From positions 146-64,145 of the forward strand of contig DATIHX010000011.1 in assembly GCA_035480235.1 (NCBI GenBank): DNA of 64,000 nucleotides. The letters are read 5' to 3'. The translations under genes were made by a program, and so were the position numbers. The notes beneath the pieces are model-generated. The model did not search any database. It saw only the letters and a list, made by a program, of their open reading frames with translations, and was not told where the DNA came from. The number at the start of each line of letters is the position of its first letter. Positions within the stretch are counted from its first letter, which is position 1. The stretch is from Candidatus Saccharimonadales bacterium. Lineage in GTDB: Bacteria > Patescibacteriota > UBA1384 > 2-12-FULL-50-11. This document shows positions 4,255-52,470 of this stretch, one piece after another.

Positions 4255-4686
4255 CTATTCAGCTACTGGTTCTTCAGCGGGGGCAGCGTCGTCGGCAGCC
4301 GGAACTTCTTCGGTAACAACTTCAGCCGTAGGCTCTGGAGCGGCGTTTTCGGCTTGTGTTTCGGCAGCGGCTTCAGGAGCTGGCGCGGCCTTAGCGGCTT
4401 CTTCTACGGCTTTCTTCGGGTTGCGTTTTTTCTTAATCACAACAACGGAGCCGTGTTTAATTTTCTCTTTTTCAAACAAGCGAGCAACAGAATTGGACGG
4501 CTTGGCGCCTTTGTTCAGCCAGTTCATCGCTTCGTCTTTATTAATAGTGGTGGCTTTGGAGTGCGGGTTGTAGGAGCCTAAATCAGCCACAAAACGGCCG
4601 TCGATCGGCATGGTGTGTTCGGCCACCACAACCCGGTAGGTTGGGCTATTTTTCTTGCCGATGCGGCGATAACGGATAATTAACAT
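4255..4686 (-). CDS. rpsP: 30S ribosomal protein S16 with an Ala/Glu/Pro-rich C-terminal extension
   Basis: MLIIRYRRIGKKNSPTYRVVVAEH... is the canonical S16 N-terminus. Confidence 0.95.
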   Translation of the reverse strand: MLIIRYRRIGKKNSPTYRVVVAEHTMPIDGRFVADLGSYNPHSKATTINKDEAMNWLNKGAKPSNSVARLFEKEKIKHGSVVVIKKKRNPKKAVEEAAKAAPAPEAAAETQAENAAPEPTAEVVTEEVPAADDAAPAEEPVAE

Positions 4687-4709
4687 ATTTGTTTTTGAAT
4701 TGGTTGGCC

Positions 4710-4863
4710 GTGAGGAAATATATTTCTAGCTAAACGCAACTCGGCTCGAAGAAGGATCTTCCAGGTTCCACTATATCGGCATTTCAACCGATTATTGCCT
4801 TGTTCATCGGCAATATTGGAATTGAGCCGAGCTTACTTAAACGCTGCGAAAAACATTTCCTCA
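4710..4863 (-). repeat. structured intergenic element, copy 1 (fills the fmt-rpsP spacer)
   Basis: Shares the cores GCTAAACGCAACTCGGCTCG..GAAGGATCTTCCAGGTTCCACTAT and GGAAT.GAGCCGAGCTT.CTTAAACGCT with 51135..51256. The outer 10-bp helix GTGAGGAAAT (4710-4719) / ATTTCCTCAC (4854-4863) is unique to this copy. It also has an extra ~42-nt hairpin insert. Confidence 0.6.
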
Positions 4864-4873
4864 CTGCCAGGTC

Positions 4874-6229
4874 TTAGGCAATTATACTAAACCAGGACTC
4901 TTTGGTCAACTGGTTGGCGTAGCCCCGCTTGAAGTCGGCCCAGTTGGCCGGTTGTTTGCCCTCCAGTTGGACGGTATCCAAGACTAACTTGCCGTTCTCT
5001 AGGTGGGCGGCAATAATTTTCAGCCGCTGACCGTTAAGAACGGTAAACGTCCCCGGCCAGGGAGTAAACGCCCGGATTTGGCGGTCGATCTGCTCCGGCG
5101 AAAGCGACCAGTCGATCTCACCCATTTCTTTAGTAAGTTTAGTAGTGCCAGTTACTGCTTGTTCGTTTTGCGGCTGGATTTTGGCTTGGCCGCTCAAATA
5201 AACGGGCAAATTTTTCAGGAGTAATTTAGCACCGAGCTCGGCGGCTTTGTTTTTGAGCGTTGGAAAATCGTCGGTTTCGGCGATTACCAGCTTTTCTTGC
5301 GCCACTACGCCGCCGGCGTCAACTTTTGGCTCCATCGTCATAATGGTGACACCAGTTTCTTTATCGCCGCTCAAAATGGCGGTTTGGATCGGCGTCGCGC
5401 CGCGATATTTGGGTAAAAGCGAAGGATGAATGTTCAACGAGCCGTATTTTGGCACCACCAAGGCTTCAGCTGGCAGAATTTTGCCGTAAGAAGCTAAAAC
5501 TAGCAAATCTGGCTTGAGTTGCTGGATAATTTTTGTCAATTCCGGCTTATCGTCGGGCTGAAAAACGGCGATGCCGGCCTGCTCGGCGTTAGTTTTAACA
5601 ACTGGCTCGGTGGTTTCGTTGCCCCGGCCGGCCCGCTTGGCCGTTTCGGTGATGGCGGCCATCACCGTCTGCTTGGCGTCGATAAGAGCGTTAAAAATAA
5701 CGTTACTGAAATCGTCCGAGCCCAAGAAAACAATTTTGGCGAATTGATAATTTTCTAGTTTGTTCAGTTCAAGCGCATAGTCAGTAAATAAAATACCGTT
5801 AATATGGTCGATTTCGTGCTGCAAAATCCGAGCAAAAATGCCCTTAGCTTTGATGGTCACCGGCTTGCCGTCGAGGTTTTGGGCCGCTACCGTAACGCCG
5901 GCGCTACGCTCCACCGGCAGTTCCAGCCCCGGCAAACTCAAGCAGCCTTCCGTCATCGTCTCTTTTTCTTTGGAAAATTTGAGAACTTTTGGGTTAACAA
6001 GCGCTTGTTCGGGGATTCGCGGTAATTCGTCATGAGCGTCTTTAGGCTCGTAACCCATCACAATTAAGCGTTTATCGAGGCCTACTTGAACACCGGCCAA
6101 ACCGAGACCGTCGTGCGATTTCATGGCTTTGAGCATCTCGGCCGCCTCTTTTTTGAGCTCTTCGTCAAAAACCGTCACGGCCTTGGCAGTGCGGCGCAAA
6201 AACGGGTCGTAAATTACTTTAACTTCCAT
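4874..6229 (-). CDS. def/fmt: peptide deformylase fused to methionyl-tRNA formyltransferase (single ORF)
   Basis: The N-terminal ~165 aa carry the Def motifs GVQVG, EGCLSLPG and HEIDHINGILF. The ORF continues without a stop into Fmt (AKIVFLGSDDFS ... LNIHPSLLPKYRGATPIQ). Start taken at MEVKVIYDP (ATG 6229). The longer track ORF to 6448 overlaps the upstream gene. Confidence 0.85.
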   Translation of the reverse strand: MEVKVIYDPFLRRTAKAVTVFDEELKKEAAEMLKAMKSHDGLGLAGVQVGLDKRLIVMGYEPKDAHDELPRIPEQALVNPKVLKFSKEKETMTEGCLSLPGLELPVERSAGVTVAAQNLDGKPVTIKAKGIFARILQHEIDHINGILFTDYALELNKLENYQFAKIVFLGSDDFSNVIFNALIDAKQTVMAAITETAKRAGRGNETTEPVVKTNAEQAGIAVFQPDDKPELTKIIQQLKPDLLVLASYGKILPAEALVVPKYGSLNIHPSLLPKYRGATPIQTAILSGDKETGVTIMTMEPKVDAGGVVAQEKLVIAETDDFPTLKNKAAELGAKLLLKNLPVYLSGQAKIQPQNEQAVTGTTKLTKEMGEIDWSLSPEQIDRQIRAFTPWPGTFTVLNGQRLKIIAAHLENGKLVLDTVQLEGKQPANWADFKRGYANQLTKESWFSIIA

Positions 6230-9870: not shown

Positions 9871-9929
9871 CAGGCGAAAAAAGACCAGCTAGACTTAGCC
9901 GAGACAGCTTGTTACCTCCCTCCCCAAGA

Positions 9930-9957
9930 CCCCGTGGCGCAACCCTCGCGCCCGGGG
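9930..9957 (+). terminator. GC-rich hairpin after der (weak U-tract)
   Basis: CCCCG-T-GGCGC / GCGCC-CGGGG stem, followed by TTAATCTT. Confidence 0.4.
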
Positions 9958-10080
9958 TTAATCTTACATAATTATATTTAATATTTCGGCGAAGCAGTGG
10001 CGTGAAATTGGCTAGCCGGCAGCAGACTAAGCCGTTTTCGATAACGAGATTTTGAAAAAAAGCGAGTTTCCGGAAGGTGC

Positions 10081-37271: not shown

Positions 37272-39227
37272 ATGCCCACTGAATCCGGCCCACAATTCTT
37301 AAAAGAAAAGTACGACCTTCATAATGCGCCAGAGGTACAAACAGCGGCCGAGCGAACCAATCGCCGCAACGAACGAGCCGCCCAAGACGGTGAAGAGTTT
37401 GAAACTATCGGCCAAGATCCGGCCGCCCGGATTGAAAATTACCTCCGACGTTTTACAGAAATAACAAAGCGCACGGATCCGGAAAAACGCGAACGCGGCC
37501 TAGAAGCCGTCAAGCAACTAATTTTTGATAAGTTTGTCACTAAGTACGAAGACGTGCCAGAATCGTTTAAGCAATTGCAGGAAAGATTAATCCGAGAGCG
37601 CGGCGCGGGCGGCGACTGGGCCGGAGCAACAGACGAGCAAAGAGAACAAGTTATCCGGCAAAACGCCGAGGCAATGATTGACGATCAGCAGGCTTCGCTT
37701 GAACAATGGATCGACTACTTGGCCTCGGCCGATTCCAGCTATATGCCTGATTATTTAAAATACTGGACCGTTCGGAGCGTTCTCGGCCTCCAGGAATACG
37801 ATAAAGAAAATCATAAATTCCCTAACCGTTCCCGTGGCACCCTCAAGCAATTCCCCGACATTAACCAGGAGGCGCTCGTCTATGTGACCGAAGCTCTCGA
37901 AAAACATTTTAACGGCCAAAAGCCGGAGTACGAATATGACATTCAACCGGAAGATCGGACTCGATTTGAACAATTTATTGAGCACCAAAGCTTCGCCAAA
38001 ATGTATGCTTGGGCCGTTGAGCAAATTAACCCGATTTCCGAAGAACTTCTTCAAGTTACTGAAGGGCAATGGCATAAATTCGAGCAAGGCTCCGATTCAC
38101 ACGCCTTATCCGATTCAATCCGCGGCCGAAGTACCGGCTGGTGTACTGCTGGCCAAAACACTGCTAAAACGCAACTTGAAGCCGGGGACTTTTATATTTA
38201 TTACTCCAATAACGAGGAGGGCAGCCCAACTATCCCCCGCATCGCCATTCGGTTGGAAACGGGTAAGATCGCCGAAGTTCGGGGGGTAGCCTATAAACAA
38301 AACCTTGACCCTTATATGGGGCCGATACTAGAAGAAAAACTTAATGAATTTCCCGACAAGCAGCAGTATCTGAAAAAGGAACACGATATGGCCACGCTCA
38401 CCGCCCTCGAGCAGCGAGCCAAAGCAGGCGAAGAACTAACAAAAATTGATCTAGCCTTCCTTTACGAAATAGATAGCCAAATAGAAGGCTTTGGCTATCA
38501 GCGCGATCCCCGTATTAAAGAGTTGCGCGTCGGACGGAATATGGAAGCCGACATGTTAACCATCTTTGAATGCGAACCAGCCCAAATCGCCCGGAGTGTT
38601 GCAGAAATAAACGCCGAAACGAAAGCTTTTGTTGGCAAGTTGGAACCCGGCATTTTCACTAAAATTGCCGAACATCCAGCTATTGAACACCTGTACACCA
38701 ACTTCCCCGAAGGCAAAATCGCCCGCTCAGAACTAACGATCGGCGGTAAAACAGTTGACCAGCTCAAAGCCGAAATGGCAGAAAAACAAATTAATACTTC
38801 CAGTTGGGCCGAAGATATGCTGGCTAAAATGCCGGTCTTACCAAACCCTGAGCAAATCACCCTTATTCGTTTAAAAGTCGGCGATCTTGGCTTAACCGGC
38901 CAGCCAACGACCGATGAAATTTACGCCCGGGCCGCCGAATTGGGACTAGAACTCTGCCCAGCCGAAGTCGGTCCGCACCAACGCCTCAAAGACACCGAAC
39001 AGCCGTTAGGCGATTGGTATCGGGTGGCGATGAAACAAATTGCTGACCGGTTCGGCAGCCCGGACGTCTTCCGCCTGGAACGCAACGACCACGGCTTGTG
39101 GCTGAGCGACAGTATTGCCGAGCCCGACCGCAGGTGGGATCTGGACGATCAGTTTGTCTTCGGTCTTCGCAATGTTTCTCCGGACTCTCAGGCTCCTGAA
39201 CCCTTTATTCCCCAATTTGAGTTTTAG
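37272..39227 (+). CDS. DGR target protein (651 aa) with a C-terminal variable region
   Basis: ORF track. The VR occupies codons encoding ...IADRFGSPDVFRLERNDHGLWLSDSIAEPDRRWDLDDQFVFGLR, near the C-terminus as in C-type-lectin-fold DGR targets. Confidence 0.8.
   Translation: MPTESGPQFLKEKYDLHNAPEVQTAAERTNRRNERAAQDGEEFETIGQDPAARIENYLRRFTEITKRTDPEKRERGLEAVKQLIFDKFVTKYEDVPESFKQLQERLIRERGAGGDWAGATDEQREQVIRQNAEAMIDDQQASLEQWIDYLASADSSYMPDYLKYWTVRSVLGLQEYDKENHKFPNRSRGTLKQFPDINQEALVYVTEALEKHFNGQKPEYEYDIQPEDRTRFEQFIEHQSFAKMYAWAVEQINPISEELLQVTEGQWHKFEQGSDSHALSDSIRGRSTGWCTAGQNTAKTQLEAGDFYIYYSNNEEGSPTIPRIAIRLETGKIAEVRGVAYKQNLDPYMGPILEEKLNEFPDKQQYLKKEHDMATLTALEQRAKAGEELTKIDLAFLYEIDSQIEGFGYQRDPRIKELRVGRNMEADMLTIFECEPAQIARSVAEINAETKAFVGKLEPGIFTKIAEHPAIEHLYTNFPEGKIARSELTIGGKTVDQLKAEMAEKQINTSSWAEDMLAKMPVLPNPEQITLIRLKVGDLGLTGQPTTDEIYARAAELGLELCPAEVGPHQRLKDTEQPLGDWYRVAMKQIADRFGSPDVFRLERNDHGLWLSDSIAEPDRRWDLDDQFVFGLRNVSPDSQAPEPFIPQFEF
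39040..39170 (+). repeat. DGR variable repeat (VR)
   Basis: 131-nt ungapped alignment with 39581-39711. 17 mismatches, every one at an A in the TR copy. Confidence 0.9.
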
Positions 39228-39580: not shown

Positions 39581-39711
39581 TAACTGACCGGAACGGCAAC
39601 CCGAACGTCTTCAACCTGGAACGCAACGACAACGGCTTGTGGCTGAACAACAATATTGCCAAGCCCGACAACAGGTGGAATCTGGACAATCAGTTTGTCT
39701 TCGGTCTTCGC
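39581..39711 (+). repeat. DGR template repeat (TR)
   Basis: Same orientation as the VR. AAC/AAT-rich in the VR reading frame. The 3' flank (CAGTCTTTC...) diverges from the VR flank (AATGTTTCT...) right after the shared GC-rich TTCGGTCTTCGC. Confidence 0.9.
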
Positions 39712-41170: not shown

Positions 41171-41377
41171 ATGCTAACCAAAGACGATCTCAAGGCTATT
41201 GGCCAACTAGTCGAATTCCAAACCGCTCCGATTGTTAAATCAATTGAAGGCTTGAAAAATGATGTAGGCGACCTTAAAACTGATGTTGTTGGCTTGAAAA
41301 CTGATGTAGGAGACCTTAAAAGTGATGTTTTTGGCTTGAAAACTGATATGAAAACGGTCAAAAAGGACGTCAAATAG
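41171..41377 (+). CDS. coiled-coil heptad-repeat protein ending at an in-frame TAG inside the repeat array
   Basis: MLTKDDLKAIGQLVE... followed by (G/D)LK(T/N)DV(G/V) units. The repeat and the open frame continue after the TAG to 41497. Confidence 0.45.
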   Translation: MLTKDDLKAIGQLVEFQTAPIVKSIEGLKNDVGDLKTDVVGLKTDVGDLKSDVFGLKTDMKTVKKDVK

Positions 41378-49304: not shown

Positions 49305-51122
49305 TTACTTCTGGCTTTTGGCCCGCGAATTGGCGTTGAGAATTTTTTTGCGCAGCCGCAGGGACTTTGGAGTCACTTCTAAAAGCTCGTCGTCCTCCAA
49401 AAAGTCGATACATTGCTCCAAGCTCATCGCGGTTGGTGGCGTCAGATTAATAGCGTCGTCGGAGCCGGAGGCCCGGACGTTGCTAAGTTTTTTCTCTTTA
49501 GTAACGTTAATCTCCAGGTCGTTCTCGCGACTATTGAGGCCGATAATCATCCCTTCGTAGACGGCTGTTTGGGGGCCGATAAAGGTGGTGCCGCGCTGTT
49601 GAGCGTTATTCAAGCCGTACGAAACAGCTTTACCGGTTTCGGAAGCGATCAAAACGCCGTTGCGGAGTTTAGGGATAGCGCTACCAAGCGGGGCGAAGCG
49701 GACAAAAATGGAGTTTAGCACGGCCGTGCCGCGGGAAAGAGTGAGCAGGATGTTCCGCAAACCCAGCAAACCCCGGGTGGGAATCTCGAAAGTTAAGCGG
49801 TTGGTGCTGTCGTCGTTAACGCTTTGGGCCATTAAGACGCCTTTGCGTTTGCCAACTTCACCGGTGATGGTGCTGGTGTAGTCGGCTGGAACGTCAACGG
49901 TTAGTTCTTCGATCGGCTCCATGGTGACGCCGTCGATTTGTTTGGTAATTACTTTCGGGGCGCCGATTTGGAGCTCAAAACCCTCGCGGCGGAGCGTTTC
50001 AATAAAAACAGAGAGGTGCAACTCGCCCCGGCCGCTTAAAATGTATTCGTTGTTCTCGCCTTTCTCCATTTTCAAAGAAACATTCACTTCCAGCTCCTGC
50101 AAAATCCGTTCATAAATTTTTTGGCTAGTCAGGTTTTTGCCCTCTTGGCCGACGAACGGCGAGGTGTTAGCCGAAACGGCCATCTTCAAGGTTGGTTCGG
50201 CAATTTCGATCGTCGGCAGCGCTTCTGGGGCGCTTTCAAGCGCGATCGTGTCACCGATCCGAGCCGCTTTCAAACCAGTTAAAGCGACGATATCGCCGGC
50301 GTTGGCGCTCTCCACTAGTGTCCGTTTCAGGCCTTGATTAGTATAAACGCGGTCGATTTTAGCGGTAGCGCGCCAGCCTTCGGGAGTGCCAATGACGACC
50401 GACAACCCTGGTTTGGCGATGCCCCGGCTAATTTTGCCGATAACGTATTTGCCCTGGAAACTATCCCAATCGAGCGCGGTGACGAGTAGCTGAAACGGCT
50501 CGTTAATCTCGCTTTTAGGCGACGGCACGTCGCTCAAAATCGCATCAAAAATTGCACTTAAGTCGCCGGGTTCGGCGATTTGGGCAACCGTGGGCTCGAA
50601 CGCCCAGGCTTTGCCGTCGCGGCCGATGGCGTAATAAATGGGGAAATCGAGCTGACTTGAATCGGTGGCTAAATCCAAAAATAAGTCTGATGTCGCTTGA
50701 ATAACTTTCTTAATTTGGGCGTCGGGTTTATCGATTTTGTTAATAATCACAATCGGCCGTAAGCCCAGCTCCAAAGCCTTTTTCAGCACAAATTTGGTTT
50801 GGGGCATCGGGCCTTCTTTGGCGTCGATAATTAATAGGGCGCCGTCGGTCATGTTGAGGGTGCGCTCAACTTCACCGCCAAAATCGGCGTGGCCGGGTGT
50901 GTCAACGATATTAATCTTTGTACCTTTGTAGGTAACGGCGGTGTTTTTGGCCAAAATGGTGATGCCGCGCTCTCGCTCTTGATCGTTTGAGTCCATAATC
51001 AGCGTTTGGCCCATCTCGGCTTCGTTATCGCGAAACGTATTCGATTGTTTGAGCAAACCGTCCACCAATGTGGTTTTACCGTGGTCGACGTGGGCAATGA
51101 CAGCGATATTACGGATACTCAT
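49305..51122 (-). CDS. typA: translational GTPase TypA/BipA
   Basis: [33 protein letters not shown] and NKIDKP motifs. 605 aa. Confidence 0.95.
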
Positions 51123-51134
51123 TATTATTGAATT

Positions 51135-51256
51135 GAATTCCCCGCAACATTGCCACTCGCTAAACGCAACTCGGCTCGTTGAAGGATCTTCCAGGTTCCA
51201 CTATGGGAATGGAGCCGAGCTTGCTTAAACGCTCGTAACAACATTCCGGGGAATTC
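51135..51256 (-). repeat. structured intergenic element, copy 2 (fills the helicase-typA spacer)
   Basis: Same cores as copy 1. The outer 10-bp helix here is GAATTCCCCG (51135-51144) / CGGGGAATTC (51247-51256). Confidence 0.6.
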
Positions 51257-51270
51257 TCGTTTATTCATAG

Positions 51271-52470
51271 TTATTTAACAAACGTTAAGGCGCTACCTTT
51301 TTTGTTGGCGCGGCCGGTCCGACCGATCCGATGAATATAGTCGGAATAATTCTCCGGCGCTTCGTAGTTAATAACGTGGGTAACGTCAGGGATATCCAAG
51401 CCGCGCGCCGCTACGTCGGTGGCGACCATAATTTGAGCCCGATCTTGCTTGAACTCTTGCAAGGCCCGTTGGCGCTGACCTTGGTTTTTGTTGCCGTGAA
51501 TGGCGACCGCCGAAAAACCGCGTTCGCTCAAAATATCGGCCAGTTTCTGGACACCGTGTTTGGTGCGGCCAAAAATCAGCACTTTTTTGAACTCTTCGCG
51601 AATCAACATTTCGTGAAGCAGCGTTAATTTATGAAACGGGTCGGTGTAGCGGACGACGTCTTGGTCGATGTTAGCCGAAGTGTCGCGTTTTTTAACCGAG
51701 ATCGTCTCGGGGTTATTCATAAAAGCGTCGATCAGGTGGCGAATTTCCGGGCCGATGGTGGCCGAGAAGAAAAACGACTGGCGATCTTTGGGTAGATAGC
51801 TAATCAAAAGCCTGGTATCGGTGATGAAGCCCATTTCAACTAGCCGGTCGGCTTCGTCAACCACCAAGTTACGAACGTCGTTTAAGCGTAAGCTGCCGCG
51901 GTTGATGTGGTCTTTCAAGCGACCGGGTGTACCGATAATAAATTGCGGCCGGCGCTCCAGTGCTCGGAGCTGGGTGAACATACTGCCGCCGCCAATGCAG
52001 AGGGCGCTATAAATCGGTAAACCAGCCGCAAAGGCGCGGAGCTCTTCTTCAATTTGAACCGCTAGTTCGCGGGTTGGGACGATAATTAAGGCTCGTTCAC
52101 CTCGGCTGGCGCTCATTTTTGTTAGAATCGGCAGCAAGAAAGCGGCCGTTTTGCCGGTGCCGGTTTCGGCGATACCGATAACGTCGCGGCCTTCGAGGGC
52201 AGCCGGAATCGCTTGGTCTTGAATCGGTGTTGGCTGAACGTAGCCGCGTCGAATGACCCGTTCTAAAATAGCCGGGTTGAGGGCGAAGTCGCTAAAGCTG
52301 TGAATCGGTTGGAAAGCCTCCTCGGCTACCGCTTCGGTCGCTTTATTGACGTAAACATTGGGGTTGATGTAGCTTGAACGCCCACCGCTCCGGCCGCCAC
52401 CATTGCCACCATTTCGGCGGCCGAAACCACTGACGCGACGATTGCCGCGAATTTTCCCATTACTATACAT
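51271..52470 (-). CDS. DEAD-box RNA helicase with an N-terminal Gly/Arg-rich segment
   Basis: AETGTGKTAAFLLP, VVDEADRL, FSAT and HRIGRTGRA motifs. Confidence 0.9.
   Translation of the reverse strand: MYSNGKIRGNRRVSGFGRRNGGNGGGRSGGRSSYINPNVYVNKATEAVAEEAFQPIHSFSDFALNPAILERVIRRGYVQPTPIQDQAIPAALEGRDVIGIAETGTGKTAAFLLPILTKMSASRGERALIIVPTRELAVQIEEELRAFAAGLPIYSALCIGGGSMFTQLRALERRPQFIIGTPGRLKDHINRGSLRLNDVRNLVVDEADRLVEMGFITDTRLLISYLPKDRQSFFFSATIGPEIRHLIDAFMNNPETISVKKRDTSANIDQDVVRYTDPFHKLTLLHEMLIREEFKKVLIFGRTKHGVQKLADILSERGFSAVAIHGNKNQGQRQRALQEFKQDRAQIMVATDVAARGLDIPDVTHVINYEAPENYSDYIHRIGRTGRANKKGSALTFVK

Follow-up and report, generated by a model that had tools for sequence, protein, structure and literature searches.

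Two intergenic spacers on the minus strand of the 64,000-nt stretch of Candidatus Saccharimonadales DNA analysed here (hereafter the window) are filled by copies of the same structured element (Table 1). One copy lies between a def/fmt fusion gene and rpsP (copy 1), and the other between a DEAD-box helicase gene and typA, also named bipA (copy 2). As the original prediction had stated, each copy takes up the entire stretch from the upstream stop codon to the downstream ATG, and neither ATG is accompanied by a Shine-Dalgarno (SD) sequence. The distance from the end of the hairpin to the ATG is 18 nt for copy 1 and 12 nt for copy 2.

The flanking genes and some other parts of the window have features of their own. 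The def/fmt ORF encodes peptide deformylase and methionyl-tRNA formyltransferase in a single protein of 451 aa (PF01327, PF00551 and PF02911), and the fusion is kept in two related loci, L086 and L087. The ribosomal protein S16 encoded by rpsP ends in an Ala-, Pro- and Glu-rich extension of about 60 aa, which diverges quickly between relatives; the domain is 95% identical, alignable over only 59% of the query. Elsewhere in the window, a 128-nt sequence is directly repeated at a distance of 541 nt (39043-39170 and 39584-39711, 88% identical), and 21-nt units are repeated in tandem at 41244-41348. The tRNA-Arg genes (tct and tcg, minus strand) are preceded, 60-100 nt upstream, by a near-identical copy of their 5' half (54733-54772/54835-54874 and 45252-45270/45334-45352), the reverse of the usual situation, in which integrating elements leave a duplication of the tRNA 3' end.

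Table 1. Features of the two element-bearing junctions, all on the minus strand of the window
Feature	Coordinates	Strand	Remarks
rpsP	4255-4686	-	downstream of copy 1
Copy 1	4687..4873	-	whole 187-nt spacer, def/fmt stop (4874-4876) to rpsP ATG (4686)
Copy 1 hairpin	4705..4869	-	MFE -73.0 kcal/mol, z -7.9; model R2 match 4706-4868, 99.6 bits
Conserved apical motif, copy 1	4751..4774	-	
P3 extension, copy 1	about 4776..4817	-	42-nt insertion made of two small hairpins; also in L091 typA copy
Mini-ORF MFFAAFK-stop	4833..4856	-	behind GAGGA; head of the former bridging frame
def/fmt fusion	4874-6229	-	upstream of copy 1
Promoter-like TTGACC-17-TATAAT (11 of 12)	4881..4909	-	within the 3' end of def/fmt; -10 ends 7 nt before the spacer
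typA/bipA	49305-51122	-	downstream of copy 2
Copy 2	51123..51270	-	whole 148-nt spacer, DEAD-box helicase stop (51271-51273) to typA ATG (51122)
Unpaired tail AAUUCAAUAAUA, copy 2	51123..51134	-	hairpin to typA ATG; A/C/U-rich, almost no G; no SD
Bridging uORF, copy 2	51125..51268	-	47 codons; ATG 2 nt after helicase stop, TAA 2 nt before typA ATG
Copy 2 hairpin	51135..51256	-	MFE -59.3 kcal/mol, z -6.2; model R2 match 51136-51255, 131 bits
Conserved apical motif AUAGUGGAACCUGGAAGAUCCUUC, copy 2	51181..51204	-	contains tandem UGGAA-CC-UGGAA
P2 5' strand (AAGCUCGGCUC), copy 2	51212..51222	-	partner 51168-51177
DEAD-box helicase gene	51271-52470	-	upstream of copy 2

The two copies share the cores GAAGGATCTTCCAGGTTCCACTAT (4751-4774 and 51181-51204) and GCTAAACGCAACTCGGCTCG (4729-4748 and 51159-51178), each of which occurs only twice in the window, where the number of matches expected by shuffling is 0. 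The minus-strand pairing of AAGCUCGGCUC with GAGCCGAGUU is present in both copies, and the extra apical part of about 42 nt described in copy 1 corresponds to the two small hairpins of the P3 extension. These observations bear out the original prediction. It had also reported 10-bp closing helices that differ between the copies, namely GTGAGGAAAT/ATTTCCTCAC in copy 1 and GAATTCCCCG/CGGGGAATTC in copy 2. The sequences proved correct, at 4710-4719/4855-4864 and 51135-51144/51247-51256, respectively, but the end of copy 1 had been placed at 4863 instead of 4864. The closing helices run 11-16 bp further inward, giving a rod of about 22 bp with several G·U pairs. The proposal that pairing is kept in the outer helices while sequence is not holds in that the helices differ; nevertheless, this is not simple covariation, as the window paralogs are mosaic.

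From the outside to the inside, the hairpin is made of the 10-bp outer helix, a single mismatch, a G·U-rich inner helix of 11-16 bp, two internal loops (2x2 and then 6x5, the latter GUUUAA/GUUUA) separated by 2-3 bp, the 12-bp P2 helix, and an apical junction that carries AUAGUGGAACCUGGAAGAUCCUUC. The length of the element ranges from 120 to 165 nt. The sense strand folds far better than chance and better than the plus strand by 12-14 kcal/mol, the latter reaching -61.1 kcal/mol for copy 1 and -45.7 kcal/mol for copy 2. No U-tract follows either copy on the minus strand, where the terminator scan calls no terminator, and in the absence of a U-tract the terminator reading fails.

We searched for known families and for further copies. 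In agreement with the original prediction, which had not assigned the element to any class, a search of the window and of three related loci (L091 to L093, see below) with Rfam 15 returned no match at the gathering thresholds, and at E<=10 it returned snoRNA-type noise only, of 13-17 bits. Covariance models, for which the original prediction had called, were used in two versions to look for further copies in related loci. R1, a model of the 80-nt core, matched the window copies only in 1.35 Mb of loci from GTDB relatives, and R2, built from five sequences, yielded no new member in 1.47 Mb, including about 170 kb of same-genus DNA; between them, the models found no other copy in 1.47 Mb of related DNA. 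Two weak matches were discarded, one (L048, 5093-5179) sitting within coding sequence and the other (L087, 14108-14178) folding as an ordinary terminator hairpin. The count is thus two copies in 74 kb of the host genome and one per typA locus in three relatives. Since R2 finds no additional member, the family amounts to a single orthologous locus, shared by a genus-level clade, and one further copy in the host genome.

Wider searches gave the same picture. The exact core 19-mer is absent from the GTDB species representatives, its three matches in JGI metagenomes are all chance matches inside coding sequence, and it has no match in IMG/VR, also when used as a gapped pattern. Blastn against phage and plasmid collections returned nothing meaningful. 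At the protein level, the 47-aa ORF of copy 2 has no homologue among 1.84 billion representative proteins, and a six-frame concatenate of core peptides has no match among 5.8 billion proteins. Neither terminal inverted repeats (TIRs) nor target-site duplications (TSDs) are found at either copy, and duplication of the flanks is not significant. We also considered that the arms of the outer helix might be duplicated flanking gene sequence or a long target duplication, which was not significant either. Lastly, UAGUGGAACCUG resembles the 3' strand of 16S h45, and three copies map there, with an 11/12 match that is at chance level, so that rRNA mimicry was not retained. Within the collections and the 1.47 Mb of related DNA covered, the element is no Rfam family and no scattered repeat.

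A TypA protein search identified closer relatives, at 93%, 90%, 89%, and 86% identity, the nearest TypA sequences in GTDB being those of Berkelbacteria-labelled MAGs at <=80% identity. The element is present at the DEAD-helicase/typA junction of each of the three closest ones, which belong to the same genus (TypA 89-93% identical). Their helicase-typA spacers are 228 nt long in L091 (from SRR31418083), 148 nt in L092 (from SRR21686408), and 145 nt in L093 (from GCA_034680565.1). R1 detects them with E-values of 2.5e-4, 2e-16, and 6.5e-11, respectively, and their R2 scores range from 45 to 124 bits. L094, with 86% TypA identity, has a 58-nt spacer with an unrelated short uORF and no hairpin. 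In GTDB relatives at 76-80% TypA identity (L008, L009, L011, L012, L019, and L069), the helicase stop and the typA ATG are separated by 0-4 nt. The spacer of the rpsP junction is 3 nt long, TAA-CAA-ATG, in three relatives with the same synteny (L086, L087, and L096), and the rpsP copy is unique to the host genome in this comparison. L093 and L086 belong to one contig, and L092 and L087 to one sample, so that genomes that have the typA copy lack the rpsP copy.

Judged from the junctions at 76-80% TypA identity, both copies had seemed to be recent insertions that no relative shares; for the typA copy, the relatives at 89-93% identity overturned this view. The typA junction of one genus is the ancestral home of the element, and the rpsP copy is a recent addition specific to the host genome. 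Because the rpsP copy is such a recent addition, the 'translation gene' context shared by the two copies is weak evidence.

Other particularities were noted at the typA junctions of the relatives. Short uORFs without a hairpin lie between the DEAD helicase gene and typA in L094 (1762-1822), L014 (about 9932-10003), and L007 (about 9881-10003). Their first nine codons copy the N terminus of TypA (M-x-I/V-R-N-I/V-A-V/I-I), and at their starts and stops they share nucleotides with the neighbouring genes (TAATG, ATGA); in L007, two of these TypA-mimicking uORFs follow each other in tandem. The hairpin-less relatives follow the same logic as the bridging frame of the typA copies (see below): either the helicase gene stops on the typA start or short uORFs bridge the two genes. 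In L093 (13609-15092, GCA_034680565.1), a bAvd gene and an RVT_1 reverse transcriptase gene, a pair typical of diversity-generating retroelements, are found 1.8 kb downstream of typA, and they are absent at the same place in the window.

We next turned to selection on the structure. Covariation, by which the original prediction was to be judged, was strong once orthologs had been added, as shown by shuffles and by RNAalifold. The main alignment (A7) is a sequence-only MAFFT alignment of five copies, four of them orthologs, from which large insertions were trimmed. Standard pairs occupy 83.3% of its structure cells, versus 36-55% when the partners are slid by 1-3 columns. Changes on both sides are found in 17 of the 42 pairs; the outer rod accounts for 12 (out of 22) and P2 for 5 (out of 12). 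None of 500 shuffles reached the values observed with A7 (0/500), and RNAalifold agrees with the covariation seen in this alignment. In a second alignment fitted to the covariance model (A8), the mRNA-sense strand has 16 G·U pairs against 2 A·C mismatches, an excess that points to an RNA of that strand and not to a DNA palindrome.

Every copy folds alone into a long rod, with a different outer sequence each time. Identity in the core is 65-75% between orthologs, compared with 44-53% at the four-fold degenerate sites of typA. The apical region is 65-82% identical between orthologs and 65-88% identical across copies, and the outer region is 35-62% identical across copies, the termini being least conserved. 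P3 and P4 show no covariation in the five-sequence alignment, nor does an alternative pairing of P3 with the second UGGAA, so that P3 may adopt either register and the apical fold given here is tentative. On the basis of five sequences, including four orthologs, the element is demonstrably a structure-conserved RNA on the mRNA-sense strand that is under selection. That it is a cis-acting RNA and not a plain terminator, as had been proposed from the window alone, is supported by the covariation among orthologs, the sense-strand bias, and the absence of a U-tract.

All four typA copies are crossed by an ORF of 47-73 codons that bridges the helicase gene and typA. Relative to the helicase stop, these uORFs start in the arrangements ATGA or TAATG, or at +2 nt or +10 nt. 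Their stops fall at the typA start (TAA-TA-ATG, TAATG, ATGA, and ATGA), at positions -5, -2, +1, and +1 relative to the typA ATG. Dinucleotide shuffling of each spacer gave such an ORF in 0.5-4% of the trials, and the remaining frames contain 2-8 stops. Neither a -1/+1 indel pair in L093, where about 26 central codons are read in another frame, nor two L091 insertions, of about 43 and 45 nt, close the frame. The uORF peptides of the window copy and L092 are about 45% identical (counted by eye), whereas TypA is 90% identical. In the conserved motif, codon position 3 is invariant, and positions 1 and 2 vary. In GCA_034680565.1, a gene of 49 aa has been called at the uORF. The hairpin appears to be traversed by ribosomes, and the target of selection appears to be translation through it and not the peptide product. 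Read-through by a conserved bridging uORF fits a coupling or leader function better than a riboswitch.

The rpsP copy has evolved differently. The window paralogs are mosaic, with a core that is 93% identical and an outer part that is 35% identical, which is below any ortholog pair. This suggests gene conversion limited to the core, or an outer helix rebuilt at the time of duplication. The former bridging frame is cut by a TAA codon where copy 2 has CAA, leaving a mini-ORF at its head. Downstream of that TAA, the same frame remains free of stops across 4680-4832 as far as ATGTTAA, where its end overlaps the start of rpsP. The SD and AUG of the mini-ORF are paired inside the outer helix, the only such pairing among the starts at the two junctions. 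As the frame has a stop at codon 8, coupling cannot act at the rpsP copy.

A promoter-like site is located directly upstream of that copy (Table 1), and in relatives (L086 and L087, around 9950-10000), TTGACC-17-TACAAT is kept 10 nt before the rpsP ATG. Given the position of the window site 7 nt before the spacer, copy 1 is probably the 5' leader of rpsP and not an intercistronic spacer. TATAAT-like boxes were also observed 6-8 nt before the ATG of several other genes, and leaderless mRNAs may be common in the lineage.

The geometry of the typA junction suggests that the element might be a genus-restricted cis-acting hairpin that couples typA translation to that of the upstream gene, a reading that we prefer to all others, although we give it somewhat less than even chances. 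In such a mechanism, the folded hairpin would hinder independent ribosome loading at typA. Ribosomes coming from the helicase gene would re-initiate on the uORF and melt the hairpin while translating it. They would then terminate at the typA start, where they would either re-initiate or leave the start free for a new ribosome, so that the amount of TypA made would depend on, and be scaled by, how much the helicase gene is translated. The element may have originated in the ancestor of the genus, by insertion or in situ, within an older short bridging uORF, and a later single copying event may have brought it into the def/fmt-rpsP junction of the host genome.

The rod ends 8-18 nt before an SD-less ATG (8-12 nt in the typA copies), a distance that places it within the 30S footprint, and in the MFE structure of L093 extra pairs lie nearer to the typA ATG. 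The region from -20 to -1 is 32-50% unpaired in the typA copies, the unpaired tail before the ATG is A- and C-rich and, in the window copies, nearly free of G, and the typA ATG itself is not base-paired. An SD is present at 26 of 65 genes in these genomes (about 40%); its lack at typA is therefore not special and gives weak support to obligatory coupling. The coupling model accounts neither for the conserved apical junction with its tandem UGGAA nor for the replacement of the plain 0-4-nt junction of relatives by a 120-nt hairpin. We also considered an RNA thermometer. This reading fails, as the tails that hold the ATGs of typA and rpsP are unpaired and offer no SD to sequester.

The conservation of the apical region might be better explained if the tandem-UGGAA junction bound a trans-acting factor, protein or ligand, the rod and uORF serving as the expression platform of a regulatory RNA that would form a portable module on typA and rpsP. 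The apical region is the best conserved part of the element (65-88%), at the nucleotide and not the codon level. The peripheral helix and P3 extension vary around a constant core, as in aptamers, and the second copy is found on another ribosome-related gene. We nevertheless regard this explanation as rather unlikely, in view of its distribution over a single genus with one ancestral locus, the lack of an Rfam match, the chance-level resemblance (11 of 12) to the 3' strand of 16S h45, and the fact that no defined pocket can be drawn without covariation in P3 and P4. A combination of features may also be envisaged, in which a factor (a protein, a small molecule, or a component of the ribosome) on the tandem-UGGAA junction would gate ribosome transit through the uORF-traversed hairpin. 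The element would then be a previously undescribed portable cis-regulatory mRNA module, which seems quite unlikely to us. Alternatively, the rod of about 22 bp might be cut by RNase III between the helicase and typA cistrons, and the copy 1 hairpin might protect the rpsP mRNA. The predicted coaxial helices of 10 and 11 bp with a single mismatch and internal loops, the rod of about 22 bp predicted in every copy, and the start of copy 1 about 4 nt after the predicted transcription start would all be in keeping with this. Cleavage within the hairpin, however, would cut the conserved bridging uORF, and we consider a role in processing or mRNA stability distinctly unlikely.

Two further explanations deny the RNA a regulatory role. 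The element might be a selfish palindromic insertion similar to MITE, ERIC, or Correia sequences, tolerated because the frame stays open. Its hairpin architecture, its absence from the corresponding junctions where TypA identity is <=86% and from the rpsP junction of three relatives, and the presence of a second copy at an unrelated junction, with a core 93% identical, would be expected of such an insertion. Yet there is one locus per genome except for the rpsP copy, with no further copy in the 1.47 Mb scanned, of which about 170 kb belong to the same genus. The core 19-mer is missing from the GTDB representatives, its three JGI matches being chance matches in coding sequence. The termini are the least conserved parts and show no TIR or TSD, and the compensatory, G·U-biased changes in the orthologs are unlike the neutral decay of a dead insertion. 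With so few copies in the DNA scanned and such variable ends, the reading as a MITE-like repeat fails, and a tolerated selfish insertion is on the whole improbable. It is very improbable that the junction simply holds a gene for a small protein of 47-73 aa, with a coding sequence that is palindromic by chance. The ORF is open in all four typA copies and is called as a gene in GCA_034680565.1. Against this stand the internal frameshift of L093, with about 26 central codons in another frame, a peptide identity of about 45% between window and L092 while TypA is at 90%, the conservation of codon position 3 with variable positions 1 and 2, and the nonsense codon of the rpsP copy. The protein searches found no homologue, neither for the 47-aa ORF (1.84 billion representative proteins) nor for the six-frame concatenate (5.8 billion), and on frameshift, peptide identity, and homologues this reading fails.

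Patescibacteria have tiny, tightly packed genomes with few recognised regulators, and to our knowledge almost nothing is known of translational control in these organisms. In this setting, we describe a young, genus-restricted structured RNA under selection, wedged into a junction that is kept at 0-4 nt in relatives. A reading frame is held open through its hairpin, with a peptide that can vary freely. Should the coupling model be true, the element would be a clear natural example of selection for the act of translating through a regulatory hairpin. It would also offer a view of the birth of a module inside an older bridging uORF, followed by its copying to a second gene. As a compact construct, it would lend itself to tests of termination-reinitiation in a lineage poor in SDs. 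If a portable module is involved, it would control genes associated with the ribosome, namely typA and, once duplicated, rpsP, in a CPR lineage where conventional regulation is scarce. A tolerated insertion, for its part, would show that operon junctions absorb insertions by evolving bridging ORFs.

Several known systems resemble the element in part. ERIC/IRU, Correia/NEMIS, RUP, and BOX sequences are present in tens to hundreds of dispersed copies, with conserved terminal inverted repeats and a TA duplication. Like ERIC, Correia, RUP, and BOX, the element measures about 120-160 nt, forms a long imperfect hairpin in mRNA, sits at operon junctions, and is present or absent between relatives. 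Unlike them, it occupies one or two loci, has variable ends and no duplication, and has orthologs with compensatory changes. Leader-peptide/hairpin attenuators of the ermC, cat, and secM-secA type combine a short uORF with mRNA structure upstream of the regulated gene. The element similarly places a short uORF with secondary structure before a gene. It differs from these attenuators in that it has no conserved stalling peptide and no alternative SD-sequestering hairpins, and its uORF spans the whole hairpin and ends on the downstream start.

Structures located after stop codons modulate re-initiation (Chemla et al. 2020, PMC7518266). Those known as RTS are generic local stability signals without conserved sequence and have been described as insulating translation (PMC7518266). 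Our element shares with them a stable structure inside an operon, which starts 14-24 nt beyond a stop codon and could determine how efficiently ribosomes re-initiate. Unlike RTS (PMC7518266), it has a uORF whose start codon overlaps that stop, and its structure is translated through. Closer counterparts are the coupling hairpins situated inside an upstream ORF near an overlapped downstream start, for example that of phage f1 VII/IX, and those reviewed for MS2 coat-lysis/replicase and E. coli rpmI-rplT (PMC12548453). In those systems (PMC12548453) the upstream frame is not, as it is here, a dedicated non-conserved uORF between two real genes. The hairpin described here is also much longer (120-165 nt) and has a conserved apical junction, and its coupling activity is a proposal deduced from its arrangement. 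Like f1 VII/IX-type coupling hairpins (PMC12548453), it is a stable hairpin in the upstream frame, close before a weak SD-less start, with stop/start overlaps (ATGA, TAATG). By sequence, then, the typA copies, with their enclosing ORF and a stop that abuts or overlaps the start, fall into the class of coupling hairpins, and they may function as such.
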